A stretch of DNA of 64,000 bases from NCBI RefSeq assembly GCF_003334815.1, contig NZ_QOWO01000001.1. One strand, given 5' to 3'. The notes under the pieces are model-generated. The model had not been told where the DNA came from. It made no database searches and saw nothing but the letters and a program-made list of their open reading frames with translations. Each line of letters begins with the position of its first letter. The stretch's first letter is position 1. Positions 46,236-51,465 of the stretch are shown here, piece after piece. Position numbers and translations under genes: made by a program. The DNA comes from Escherichia coli. Lineage in GTDB: Bacteria > Pseudomonadota > Gammaproteobacteria > Enterobacterales > Enterobacteriaceae.

Positions 46236-46518
46236 ACATTCGTCTTTAATGCACTGTAAATTATGAATTAATCCTCTAATTTATAGTGCTTTCTATTACC
46301 TTATCGCGTAATCCCATTCAGAAAACCATCACAAAAATGAATGAGTACAATTGAAAGTATAATTGCAATGTATTTTTTAAGTTTTACTTAATCGATATTT
46401 AGATAAACTAATTTTATAAAAAACACAAAATAAAATATCATATTTCAATGATTAGTAGTCCTTAAATAACAGTTACTAATCATTCTCTTTTCTACTTATC
46501 TTTATATAAAGGAATATT

Positions 46519-47070
46519 ATGTCCGCTTTTAAAAAGTCACTTCTTGTTGCTGGCGTAGCAATGATTCTTTCCAATAACGTGTTTGCTGATGAAGGTCACG
46601 GTATTGTTAAATTTAAAGGTGAAGTTATCTCTGCTCCATGTTCTATTAAACCAGGTGACGAAGATTTAACTGTAAATCTGGGTGAAGTAGCAGATACCGT
46701 ACTGAAAAGCGATCAGAAATCTTTGGCTGAACCTTTCACTATTCACCTGCAGGACTGCATGCTGAGTCAGGGTGGAACTACTTATTCAAAAGCGAAGGTT
46801 ACTTTCACTACAGCAAATACCATGACGGGTCAGTCTGATCTTCTGAAAAATACCAAAGAAACTGAAATCGGCGGCGCCACTGGCGTTGGCGTACGTATTC
46901 TGGACAGCCAGAGCGGCGAAGTAACTTTAGGTACTCCGGTAGTAATTACGTTCAACAATACCAACAGCTATCAGGAACTGAATTTCAAAGCTCGTATGGA
47001 ATCCCCAAGCAAAGATGCCACCCCGGGCAACGTTTACGCTCAGGCTGACTACAAGATTGCTTACGAGTAA
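46519..47070 (+). CDS. ygiL: Fimbrial major subunit-like protein YgiL
   Basis: 183 aa, signal peptide, fimbrial subunit fold with conserved Cys pair; preceded by a very AT-rich ~280 bp region. Confidence 0.85.
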   Translation: MSAFKKSLLVAGVAMILSNNVFADEGHGIVKFKGEVISAPCSIKPGDEDLTVNLGEVADTVLKSDQKSLAEPFTIHLQDCMLSQGGTTYSKAKVTFTTANTMTGQSDLLKNTKETEIGGATGVGVRILDSQSGEVTLGTPVVITFNNTNSYQELNFKARMESPSKDATPGNVYAQADYKIAYE

Positions 47071-47120
47071 TCGCATTTGGCCGGGTTCGCCCGGCCACAT
47101 CATTAACGGATTAATGATAA

Positions 47121-49640: not shown

Positions 49641-50399
49641 ATGAAACTAATGCGCTACTTAAATACAAAGAATATCATTGCAGCAGGAGTATTACTCTCC
49701 TGTATGAGCAGCATTGCCTGGGGTGCCATCATCCCGGATCGTACCCGTATCATAATGAATGAGTCAGATAAAGGCGAAGCATTAAAACTTACTAATCAAA
49801 GTAAAAACCTGCCCTATCTGGCCCAAACATGGATAGAAGATACGAAAGGCAATAAATCGCGTGACTTTATTGTCACTGTTCCTCCAATGGTGCGTTTAAA
49901 TCCCAGTGAGCAAATTCAAATAAGAATGATAACTCAGGAAAAAATTGCTCAACTTCCTAAAGACAGAGAAACGCTCTTCTATTTTAACGTGCGAGAAATA
50001 CCGCCCAAAACAGATAAAAAAAATGTGATGCAAGTCACTATGCAGCACGCATTGAAACTATTCTGGCGGCCAAAAGCCATTGAATTAGAAGACGATGGGG
50101 TAATGACTTACGAAAAAGTTGAAATCATTCGTAGAAATGACGGTTCGATCCGCTTTAACAATAAGATGCCTTATCACGTTACGCTGGGTTATATCGGAAC
50201 AAATGGGGTAACGATGTTACCACAAACGCAAAGCTTAATGGTAACCCCTTTTAGCTATGCAAATACGCAGTTTAAAAATGTTCCGTCAACTTTTCAGGTG
50301 GGTTATATCAATGACTTTGGTGGATTAAGTTTTTATGAAATAAACTGCCCTGTAGTAAATAACATTTGTAATATTTCTGTAGCCAACCGAGATCAATAA
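49641..50399 (+). CDS. yqiH: Periplasmic fimbrial chaperone YqiH (PapD-like)
   Basis: 252 aa ORF (alternative start MRYLNTK at 49650 gives 249 aa); signal peptide. Confidence 0.85.
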   Translation: MKLMRYLNTKNIIAAGVLLSCMSSIAWGAIIPDRTRIIMNESDKGEALKLTNQSKNLPYLAQTWIEDTKGNKSRDFIVTVPPMVRLNPSEQIQIRMITQEKIAQLPKDRETLFYFNVREIPPKTDKKNVMQVTMQHALKLFWRPKAIELEDDGVMTYEKVEIIRRNDGSIRFNNKMPYHVTLGYIGTNGVTMLPQTQSLMVTPFSYANTQFKNVPSTFQVGYINDFGGLSFYEINCPVVNNICNISVANRDQ

Positions 50400-50400
50400 T

Positions 50401-51465
50401 ATGCGCTACTTGTTAATTGTTATTACTTTTTTTATGGGTTTTAGTTCATTACCTGCATGGGCAATGGACTGCTATGCTGAACATGAAGGTGGAAATACCG
50501 TTGTCATTGGTTACGTACCAAGAATCTCTATCCCCAGCGATGGTAAAAAAGGTGATAAAATCTGGCAAAGCAGTGAATATTTTATGAATGTTTTCTGTAA
50601 TAATGCACTACCAGGCCCATCTCCAGGAGAAGAATACCCATCTGCATGGGCAAATATAATGATGTTGTTAGCATCAGGTCAAGACTTTTATAATCAAAAC
50701 TCTTATACTTTCGGTGTAACTTATAATGGGGTTGATTATGATTCTACATCTCCACTACCTATTGCAGCACCTGTATGTATTGATATAAAAGGAGCCGGAA
50801 CCTTCGGGAATGGCTACAAAAAGCCCGCAGTCTGTAGTGGCGGTCCTGAACCGCAATTATCAGTAACTTTTCCAGTACGAGTGCAGCTATATATTAAGCT
50901 AGCTAAAAATGCCAATAAAGTAAATAAAAAACTTGTATTACCTGACGAATATATAGCACTTGAATTTAAAGGTATGAGCGGAGCAGGTGCTATAGAAGTA
51001 GATAAAAATCTGACCTTCAGGATTCGCGGATTAAATAACATTCATGTCCTTGACTGCTTTGTTAATGTTGATCTGGAACCAGCTGATGGCGTTGTCGACT
51101 TTGGTAAAATAAATTCCCGAACAATTAAAAATACCAGCGTGAGTGAGACGTTTAGCGTAGTCATGACCAAAGATCCGGGTGCGGCCTGTACTGAGCAGTT
51201 TAATATTTTAGGGAGTTTTTTCACTACGGATATTTTGAGTGATTATAGCCATCTGGATATAGGTAATGGTCTGCTATTGAAGATATTTCATAACGATGGA
51301 ACAGCAACGGAATTTAACCGCTTCTCACAATTTGCTTCTTTTTCATCGTCTAGTGCGCCTTCGGTCACCGCACCATTCAGGGCAGAACTGAGTGCGAACC
51401 CGGCAGAAACGGTTGTTGAGGGACCGTTTAGTAAAGACGTAATCCTGAAAATCACCTATAACTAG
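50401..51465 (+). CDS. yqiI: Fimbrial adhesin-like protein YqiI
   Basis: 354 aa, signal peptide; last gene of the chaperone-usher cluster. Confidence 0.8.
   Translation: MRYLLIVITFFMGFSSLPAWAMDCYAEHEGGNTVVIGYVPRISIPSDGKKGDKIWQSSEYFMNVFCNNALPGPSPGEEYPSAWANIMMLLASGQDFYNQNSYTFGVTYNGVDYDSTSPLPIAAPVCIDIKGAGTFGNGYKKPAVCSGGPEPQLSVTFPVRVQLYIKLAKNANKVNKKLVLPDEYIALEFKGMSGAGAIEVDKNLTFRIRGLNNIHVLDCFVNVDLEPADGVVDFGKINSRTIKNTSVSETFSVVMTKDPGAACTEQFNILGSFFTTDILSDYSHLDIGNGLLLKIFHNDGTATEFNRFSQFASFSSSSAPSVTAPFRAELSANPAETVVEGPFSKDVILKITYN

Follow-up and report, generated by a model that had tools for sequence, protein, structure and literature searches.

The window, a 64-kb stretch of Escherichia coli DNA, very probably carries at positions 46177-51476 an uninterrupted chromosomal chaperone-usher operon of the pi clade, the 'Yqi-like' operon ygiL-yqiGHI, in a phylogroup-A-type host that is near K-12 but is not K-12. 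The intact operon is the ordinary form and the majority state among E. coli carriers. Its contrast with the IS2-interrupted locus had already been published (Archer 2011; PMC3032704 Table 5); the latter table scores ygiL-yqiGHI as present (+) in W, B, and Crooks and as IS2::yqiG in K-12.

Gene content and composition of the operon

Reading of the ORFs showed that positions 46519-51465 hold four intact genes, ygiL, yqiG, yqiH, and yqiI, encoding a pilin, an usher, a chaperone, and an adhesin (Table 1). This layout is the one given in the sequence-only reading, which had placed ygiL 50 nt ahead of an 837-codon usher ORF followed by chaperone and adhesin genes. Its claim of an uninterrupted usher also held: YqiG contains all three usher domains (Pfam PapC_N, residues 35-177; Usher, 195-747; PapC_C, 759-811), and no frameshift or internal stop was found in the full ORF (47121-49634). 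This longer ORF is GTG-initiated, and the start annotated for yqiG in MG1655 is the ATG at 47130. No IS element was found within 46236-51465.

The block and its leader, which had been described as markedly AT-rich and ~280 bp long, respectively, proved to be so when GC windows were computed. The 5.3-kb block has 40.1-40.2% GC compared with 51.7% in the remaining window, and outside it the lowest non-overlapping 5.3-kb window of the 64 kb has at least 47.7%. The leader is the lowest-GC 283-bp stretch of the whole window. With the block at 40.2% and the leader at 23.3% against 51.7%, the G+C content lies far under the genome average, as is expected of H-NS-silenced xenogeneic DNA.

Table 1. Features of the ygiL-yqiGHI block and its edges (window coordinates)
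Feature	Position	Strand	Basis or detail
Left edge of variable block: island-linked alternative ubiK 3' end, last ~19 codons	46177..46235	+	Identity drop
AT-rich leader/regulatory region of ygiL	46236..46518	+	283 bp, 23.3% GC
Candidate sigma-70 promoter of ygiL, TCGATA-17-TATAAA	46392..46420	+	Direct reading
ygiL, predicted major pilin, 183 aa	46519..47070	+	Pfam and NCBIfam
Two stem-loops in ygiL-yqiG spacer	47079..47118	+	RNA fold
yqiG, outer-membrane usher, uninterrupted	47130..49634	+	834 aa from ATG 47130; 837 codons from GTG 47121
GTTAT, 5-bp target duplication site of IS2I in K-12	47196..47200	+	Single copy in window
yqiH, PapD-type periplasmic chaperone, 249 aa	49650..50399	+	Alternative ATG 49641
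yqiI, predicted two-domain tip adhesin, 354 aa	50401..51465	+	PDB 9RWE and Pfam
GC-rich terminator hairpin beyond right edge (~51477)	51485..51504	-	Terminator scan

YgiL matched the Pfam Fimbrial family over residues 31-182 (E = 2e-21) and the NCBIfam equivalog NF007276 at 384 bits (cut-off 189); its translation, read by eye, begins with a signal-like sequence and has a penultimate Tyr. In YqiH, Pfam detected PapD_N at residues 27-144 (E = 2e-35) and PapD_C at 170-226 (E = 3e-7), and direct reading showed the N-terminus of the mature protein to carry a DRTR motif. Residues 22-218 of YqiI are 91.4% identical to a solved 197-aa domain (PDB 9RWE), and residues 228-354 matched the Pfam Fimbrial family weakly (E = 0.0024); the protein had no match in NCBIfam. 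We infer that YqiI sits at the fibre tip. A literature search found no publication for PDB 9RWE, 9RWU, 9RWW, or 9RX0.

The operon thus has the parts of a classical chaperone-usher operon, namely a three-domain usher, a two-domain chaperone, a pilin, and a two-domain adhesin. The Yqi-like type was defined by usher phylogeny and locus position (Wurpel 2013). The block lies at the ubiK (yqiC)/glgS site and is orthologous to K-12 ygiL-yqiGHI, being colinear with MG1655 and encoding identical proteins. The usher gene precedes the chaperone gene, and the usher scored 578 bits against PapC (residues 34-833) and 291 bits against FimD in the PDB, both over the full length, a proxy for clade rather than a phylogeny; both features are those of the pi clade. 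This agrees with the pi-type classification of ygiL-yqiGHI in PMC3032704 Table 5 and PMC5216030.

The 50-nt gap between ygiL and the GTG start of the usher ORF includes two hairpins, GGCCGGG-UUCG-CCCGGCC at 47079-47096 and an A/U-rich one at 47099-47118. The fold of 47060-47135 had a free energy of -23.9 kcal/mol (z = -2.75). A canonical intrinsic terminator after ygiL was not supported, as the spacer hairpins have no U tail and were not called by the terminator scan. They may instead serve as an mRNA stabiliser or partial attenuator, and such structures 3' of ygiL would probably give a higher pilin-to-usher ratio.

Comparison with K-12 MG1655

MG1655 was colinear with the window over all 64 kb (identity 99.98%), differing by 10 SNPs plus IS2I with its 5-bp GTTAT duplication. 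Its ygiL-yqiGHI operon (b3043, b3046-b3048) occupies the same ubiK-glgS locus with the same four genes. The leader (46236-46518) is 100% identical and ygiL has the same nucleotide sequence; the operon differs by two SNPs, one in yqiG (48374) and one in yqiI (50790). Because both are synonymous, all four encoded proteins are identical to those of K-12. The remaining difference is IS2I itself, which with the GTTAT duplication follows window position 47200 in K-12 and is absent from the window. Subtraction of IS2I (1331 bp) and 5 bp from MG1655 gives the window exactly, save for the two SNPs. As K-12 differs in the operon by only IS2I and these synonymous SNPs, the window shows the pre-lesion state.

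The sequence-only reading had described an IS2 between ygiL and yqiG in MG1655 and a disrupted yqiG. The IS2 is present and yqiG is a two-fragment pseudogene in the MG1655 RefSeq annotation, but the element lies inside yqiG and not in the spacer: it follows CDS nt 71, in codon 24, among the signal-peptide codons and 130 nt past the ygiL stop. In K-12 derivatives, PGAP calls an 821-aa ORF that starts within the IS2 end (N-terminus MSGNIGANP...). For the window itself, the alignment bore out both the claimed lack of IS2, with a single GTTAT kept, and the proposed non-K-12 origin.

With 99.98% identity and perfect colinearity over 64 kb, the window might be thought to derive from K-12, or to be an artefact of assembly, with IS2I gone through precise excision or repeat collapse. 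However, K-12 sublines diverge by far less than 10 SNPs per 64 kb, a figure that the window reaches. In a 25-kb comparison with complete genomes, natural isolates from dog and human were nearer to the window (2-3 mismatches) than K-12 was (7). The junction, moreover, bears one clean GTTAT, and the same continuous junction is common to 2907 genomes. Loss of IS2I from a K-12 background is therefore highly improbable, and the SNPs together with the absent IS2I identify the window as that of a close non-K-12 relative.

Leader and regulation

In vitro genomic SELEX with K-12 assigned to the yqiC>ygiL spacer both a binding site for H-NS and a promoter for RpoD (Shimada 2014; PMC3946193). Our promoter assignment for ygiL was based on this published promoter and not on the consensus scan; the candidate in Table 1 matches the entry for this spacer in Table 3 of PMC3946193. 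The consensus scan gave another, weak site at 46413-46441, and promoter-like sites were not enriched in the region (10 found, 16.6 expected). No GATC site occurs in the 283-bp leader (0.5 expected by chance), and a Dam/Lrp phase switch of the Pap or Std kind was rejected on this ground.

Since H-NS binds the 23%-GC leader in vitro, ygiL-yqiGHI is probably not expressed under standard culture conditions. Yqi-like transcripts have been detected in STEC, at higher levels in HUS-associated STEC (PMC6033998), and BolA overproduction induces ygiL in K-12 (PMC4337573). No report of derepression of ygiL-yqiGHI by hns removal was found in the literature.

Distribution and locus edges

The block is a presence/absence polymorphism in E. 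coli. It is carried by 3366 of 5426 complete genomes, and the ubiK|glgS site is empty in ~2100. Among 3276 junction-bearing genomes, the ygiL-yqiG junction is uninterrupted in 2907 and split in 364; the four split-junction genomes listed are all MG1655-type K-12 laboratory strains. BL21-AI is continuous across 8 kb. ORF intactness among carriers was judged by annotation in an evenly spaced sample, in which ~74% were intact, ~8 of 38 were IS-interrupted, and 2 more were without a normal yqiI annotation. Other strains carry independent IS1, IS903B, IS3, and IS2 insertions as well as IS1-associated deletions in the operon, and this recurrence suggests weak selection to keep it. Alleles at 94-95% nucleotide identity retain all four annotated genes.

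At the left edge, identity to empty-site genomes is 92% at 45945-46176 and drops to 49% at 46177-46235. The UbiK tail in empty-site genomes is ARNNSVADLQSPPAIPPIDKAE, and the window carries a different 19-residue tail. On the right, identity is 32% at 51420-51476 and recovers at ~51477 (96% over 51477-51800). Genomes with an empty site share the hairpin at 51485-51504, which lies there between the convergent genes ubiK and glgS. The position of these edges, one in the 3' end of ubiK and the other ahead of the terminator hairpin that both site types share, fits replacement of the block by homologous recombination. A mobile genomic island was considered and rejected, as neither direct nor inverted repeats flank the block and it contains no integrase ORF, tRNA, or other Rfam family.

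Relation to other fimbriae

ExPEC adhesin I (EA/I; Antao 2009; Spurbeck 2011; Day 2021), the Yqi/Ygi fimbria found in APEC and UPEC, is likewise of pi type, with a pilin-usher-chaperone-adhesin cluster in the same chromosomal neighbourhood. If the block were this fimbria, the reported role in lung and kidney colonisation and the glycan specificity would be transferable to it. The two share their four-gene order, many annotations use common gene names, and the adhesin domains are clearly homologous (9RWU, 95 bits). However, amino acid identity is only 59% for the pilin, 55% for the usher, 49% for the chaperone, and 37.5% for the adhesin. The EA/I cluster, which measures exactly 4975 bp in agreement with its published size, lies between yqiD and ribB and not between ubiK and glgS. 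K-12 has no EA/I (Antao 2009), and Yqi (B2) is kept apart from Yqi-like (A, B1, D, E) by Wurpel 2013. The 37.5-59% identity and the different locus refute the identity of the two, which we give next to no credence; judged on these grounds, the operon and ExPEC adhesin I are paralogues at adjacent loci, each a cluster of its own. The adhesin structures of EA/I (PDB 9RWU/9RWV) and of the Yqi-like type (9RWE) belong to a homologous fold family. Of the 5426 genomes, megablast detected the EA/I cluster in 994, most of them B2-like, and the Yqi-like block in 3366. All functional studies that we found in the literature, on adhesion and with glycan arrays, concern the B2 'Yqi/EA-I' paralogue.

P pili supply the best solved usher match, PapC (578 bits, full length), and the usher precedes the chaperone in both systems. 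Unlike pap, the Yqi-like operon lacks regulators of the PapI/B type, Dam (GATC) sites in its leader, and genes for minor or adaptor subunits (PapH, E, F, K), and it lies outside any pathogenicity island. The best NCBIfam matches were to Salmonella Std, Ste, and Stf (usher to StdB, 695 bits; chaperone to StdC, SteC, and StfD). Because all scores, including each of those for YqiH, fall under the equivalog cut-offs, these systems are relatives and not orthologues. Control of std fimbriae is Dam-dependent; as the leader has no GATC, this has no counterpart in the Yqi-like operon.

Possible function

By family knowledge, all four products would be Sec-exported after transcription beginning in the 23%-GC leader. 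YqiH would cap pilin subunits in the periplasm through donor-strand complementation, and a YqiH-YqiI adhesin complex would prime the YqiG usher. YqiG would then polymerise YgiL below the adhesin by donor-strand exchange, and the product would be a fibre with the receptor-binding domain of YqiI (residues 22-218) at its tip. To judge from its intact ORFs, the operon could be functional. No experiment on fimbria production from an intact Yqi-like operon was found in the literature.

Alternatively, the operon could be a decaying, non-functional relic despite its intact ORFs, never expressed or forming no fibre, with the K-12 IS2 marking ongoing loss. The independent IS insertions and IS1-associated deletions (~8 of 38 sampled carriers interrupted), the ~2100 genomes without the block, and the absence of any phenotype found in the literature for the Yqi-like type fit such decay, whereas the four full-length ORFs with complete domains and the ~74% of sampled carriers intact by annotation argue against it. 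Against it, too, are the four annotated genes kept by the 94-95% identical alleles, the transcripts reported in STEC, and the synonymous nature of both operon differences from K-12, although two SNPs are too few for a selection test. We therefore consider decay to be unlikely.

A tentative reading, somewhat less likely than not, is that the intact Yqi-like operon encodes a working, conditionally expressed fimbria of commensal and intestinal E. coli (A, B1, D, E) that was missed in K-12, and that the block is exchanged with the alternative UbiK C-terminal tail. YqiI may bind a different receptor from that of EA/I, as the two adhesins are only 37.5% identical. Studies in K-12 would have overlooked such a fimbria because IS2 removed the usher signal peptide. 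If block and tail are exchanged together, fimbrial presence would be genetically linked to the UbiK variant.

Beyond bookkeeping, the finding has little significance. Published 'Yqi/EA-I' data describe another paralogue, and ygiL-yqiGHI should not be credited with them. Because adhesin-domain structures have been solved (9RWE), the YqiI receptor is directly approachable. The K-12 reference misrepresents the ygiL-yqiGHI locus, and the right background for the Yqi-like fimbria is its IS2-free relatives, such as B/BL21, W, Crooks, and the strain of the window.

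An uninterrupted operon in a close relative of K-12

The fimbrial operon lies between ribB and ubiK on its left and glgS, yqiJ and yqiK on its right. The sequence-only reading had described ygiL, a 50-nt gap, an 837-codon usher, a chaperone and an adhesin, and the ORF table bore out this arrangement (see table). Following the MG1655 annotation, yqiG would instead start at ATG 47130 and encode 834 aa.

Coordinates of features in the window
Feature	Position	Details	Source
ygiL	46519-47070	183 aa	ORF table
yqiG	47121-49634	GTG start; 837 codons, open frame; 50-nt gap after ygiL	ORF table
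yqiH	49641 or 49650 to 50399		ORF table
yqiI	50401-51465		ORF table
Candidate RpoD promoter	46392-46420	leader; TCGATA-17-TATAAA	same as promoter reported for yqiC>ygiL spacer
Stem-loop	47079-47096	3' of ygiL; GGCCGGG-UUCG-CCCGGCC	fold
A/U hairpin	47099-47118	3' of ygiL	fold
FMN riboswitch	45675-45823	upstream of ribB	Rfam
naRNA4 (REP-type)	729-805; 11775-11845; 62964-63034		Rfam
ES173 sRNA	17626-17689		Rfam

The window was fully colinear with MG1655 (NC_000913.3, 3137500-3207000) over 64 kb, with 10 substitutions and the IS2I insertion as the sole indel. In MG1655, yqiG (b3046) is annotated as a pseudogene whose two fragments are separated by IS2I (insC5/insD5), and MG1655 minus the 1331-bp element and 5 bp matches window 45500-52600 except at two SNPs. 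The insertion point is directly after window 47200, and the target duplication GTTAT (47196-47200) is present in the window as a single copy. The alignment thus confirmed the expected contrast, with a junction split in MG1655 and uninterrupted here. The element had, however, been placed between ygiL and yqiG; this was slightly off, because the insertion point is 130 nt past the ygiL stop codon, after the first 71 nt of the yqiG reading frame, inside the signal-peptide codons (between MYKKLKLTTISELIKNIYCSLSV and IIIGCASAYA-VEFN).

Both operon SNPs, at 48374 (yqiG N415) and 50790 (yqiI K130), are synonymous; apart from the unbroken usher, the proteins encoded here are therefore exactly those of K-12. 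Annotation of yqiG is inconsistent, since PGAP gives K-12 derivatives an apparently intact 821-aa usher ORF (e.g. 3770-6235 in our excerpt of NZ_CP062243.1), whereas RefSeq calls the MG1655 gene a pseudogene. The 821-aa ORF starts within the IS2 right end (MSGNIGANPVIIIGCASAYA...), and its signal peptide is missing the charged n-region.

K-12 sublines differ by far fewer than ten SNPs per 64 kb. When 25 kb of the window was compared, MG1655 differed at 7 bases and natural isolates, among them dog strains D4 and D9, human strain 720632 and NCTC9104, at 2-3; no exact match was found among the complete genomes compared. The proposed non-K-12 source is borne out by these differences: the window is from a close relative of phylogroup-A type.

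The intact operon is real but ordinary and already known. The contrast between intact yqiG and IS2::yqiG among K-12, B, W and Crooks was printed by Archer 2011 (PMC3032704), the type, clade and distribution of Yqi-like operons by Wurpel 2013, and H-NS binding by Shimada 2014 (PMC3946193).

Products and proposed assembly

YqiG contains PapC_N, Usher and PapC_C domains and, among solved structures, matched PapC along its own whole length (578 bits) and FimD less strongly (291 bits). YqiH has PapD_N and PapD_C domains, and YgiL is a Fimbrial-domain pilin that passed the NCBIfam equivalog NF007276. YqiI had no NCBIfam match; the best NCBIfam relatives, StdB, StdC, SteC and StfD, were all under cut-off. 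The order pilin-usher-chaperone-adhesin, the PapC preference and these relatives fit the pi clade, to which ygiL-yqiGHI is assigned in PMC3032704 (Table 5) and PMC5216030.

Residues 22-218 of YqiI (window 50464-51054) are 91.4% identical to the separately solved 197-aa domain PDB 9RWE, and residues 228-354 gave a weak C-terminal Fimbrial match, suggesting a two-domain adhesin. Two related entries (9RWU and 9RWV) correspond to the B2 paralogue Yqi (EA/I, ExPEC adhesin I). The adhesin-domain family entries 9RWE, 9RWU, 9RWV, 9RWW and 9RX0 are recent and generically named, and our literature search found no paper tied to them.

The chaperone-usher pathway is well established. By analogy with it, all four products would be exported by Sec, YqiH would cap subunits through donor-strand complementation, a YqiH-YqiI complex would prime the usher, and donor-strand exchange would polymerise YgiL under a YqiI tip. 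The literature yielded no direct demonstration of fibres from a Yqi-like operon.

Composition and regulation

The block and its leader had been described as AT-rich, and GC content agreed: 40.2% in the block against 51.7% elsewhere in the window, with no other non-overlapping 5.3-kb window below 47.7%. The 283-bp leader (46236-46518; 23.3% GC) is the lowest stretch of such length in the 64 kb. GC3 was 0.32-0.39 for the four operon genes and 0.53 for ubiK.

An RpoD promoter and an H-NS SELEX site have been reported for the yqiC>ygiL spacer of K-12 W3110 (PMC3946193), and the leader sequence is identical in the window and K-12. It contains no GATC, making a Pap- or Std-type Dam switch unlikely. 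The stem-loops after ygiL (fold energy z = -2.75) lack a U tail; as in other fimbrial operons, they may stabilise the pilin transcript or partly attenuate read-through. BolA overproduction induces ygiL in K-12 (PMC4337573), and Yqi-like genes are higher in HUS-associated STEC (PMC6033998).

GC content also stays low to the right of the block, in the glgS-yqiJ spacer (51715-51976, 33.6%) and yqiJ (51977-52606, 42.5%). This low-GC DNA exists in empty-site genomes, in which no fimbrial block separates ubiK from glgS, and the spacer is likewise marked as H-NS-bound (PMC3946193). No Rfam family fell within the block. Elsewhere in the window, two Rfam calls marked sibD/ibsD and sibE/ibsE, SIB RNA/ibs type I toxin-antitoxin loci ~90% identical and in tandem at 54312-55044.

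Edges and origin of the block

Compared with empty-site genomes, the window is 92% identical up to 46176 and 49% in 46177-46235, placing the left edge within ubiK. On the right, identity was 32% in 51420-51476 and 96% from ~51477, just before a terminator hairpin (51485-51504) that lies between the two genes ubiK and glgS where the site is empty. Carriers have their own 19-residue UbiK C-terminal tail, and non-carriers end ARNNSVADLQSPPAIPPIDKAE, so a UbiK tail allele is linked to operon presence.

The edge pattern and low GC support a foreign origin of the block, although in some lineages loss from an ancestor may be the explanation instead. The ORF table, Rfam and a repeat search showed neither an integrase nor a tRNA nor flanking repeats at the block, a pattern that fits exchange by homologous recombination through the flanking DNA better than a self-mobile island.

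Distribution and relation to EA/I

Among 5426 complete E. coli genomes, 3366 carried the block, and in 3246 of these the match covered at least 80% of it. A 200-bp segment centred on the IS2 site was found in 3276 genomes: 2907 had it in one piece and 364 at two separate places. The split genomes listed, four in number, were all laboratory MG1655-type strains. BL21-AI was continuous over 8 kb. Of 38 chromosomal carriers sampled at even intervals, 28 had an operon that looked intact by annotation, 8 had one interrupted by an IS (five by the K-12 IS2) and 2 lacked a normal yqiI annotation. In other strains IS1, IS903B or IS3 had inserted independently, or IS1-linked deletions were present. An empty site, with ubiK and glgS as convergent neighbours, was seen in ~2100 genomes, O157:H7 and B2-like strains among them.

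A 3' yqiG fragment with the start of yqiH (~96% identical) occurred at some 73-77 plasmid places. The copy on pCUWW11A (6001-8892 of our excerpt; window ~47877-49702) has IS1A and IS26 at its borders, is interrupted by IS903B and adjoins sul3, qacL and aadA1; it looks like chromosomal DNA captured into a resistance region.

A B2-like genome with an empty ubiK/glgS site (NZ_CP159147.1) carries the EA/I cluster between yqiD and ribB: four genes in exactly 4975 bp (4229-9203 of our excerpt), equal in size to the cluster of Antao 2009, whose authors reported it absent from K-12. The cluster was present in 994 of the 5426 genomes. Its site (yqiD/ribB spacer, ~window 44690-44915) is ~1.3 kb from the Yqi-like position. 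None of 12 EA/I matches listed was IS-split, and the Yqi-like operon has been struck separately by IS1, IS903B, IS3, IS2 and IS1-linked deletions.

According to Wurpel 2013, Yqi (B2) and Yqi-like (A, B1, D, E) are related types that occupy different loci and exclude each other. EA/I products were 59% identical to YgiL, 55% to YqiG, 49% to YqiH and 37.5% to YqiI. Because the two are paralogues at separate loci, and the glycan arrays of Day 2021 concern the CFT073 (B2) cluster, functional data for "Yqi" are not transferable to ygiL-yqiGHI.
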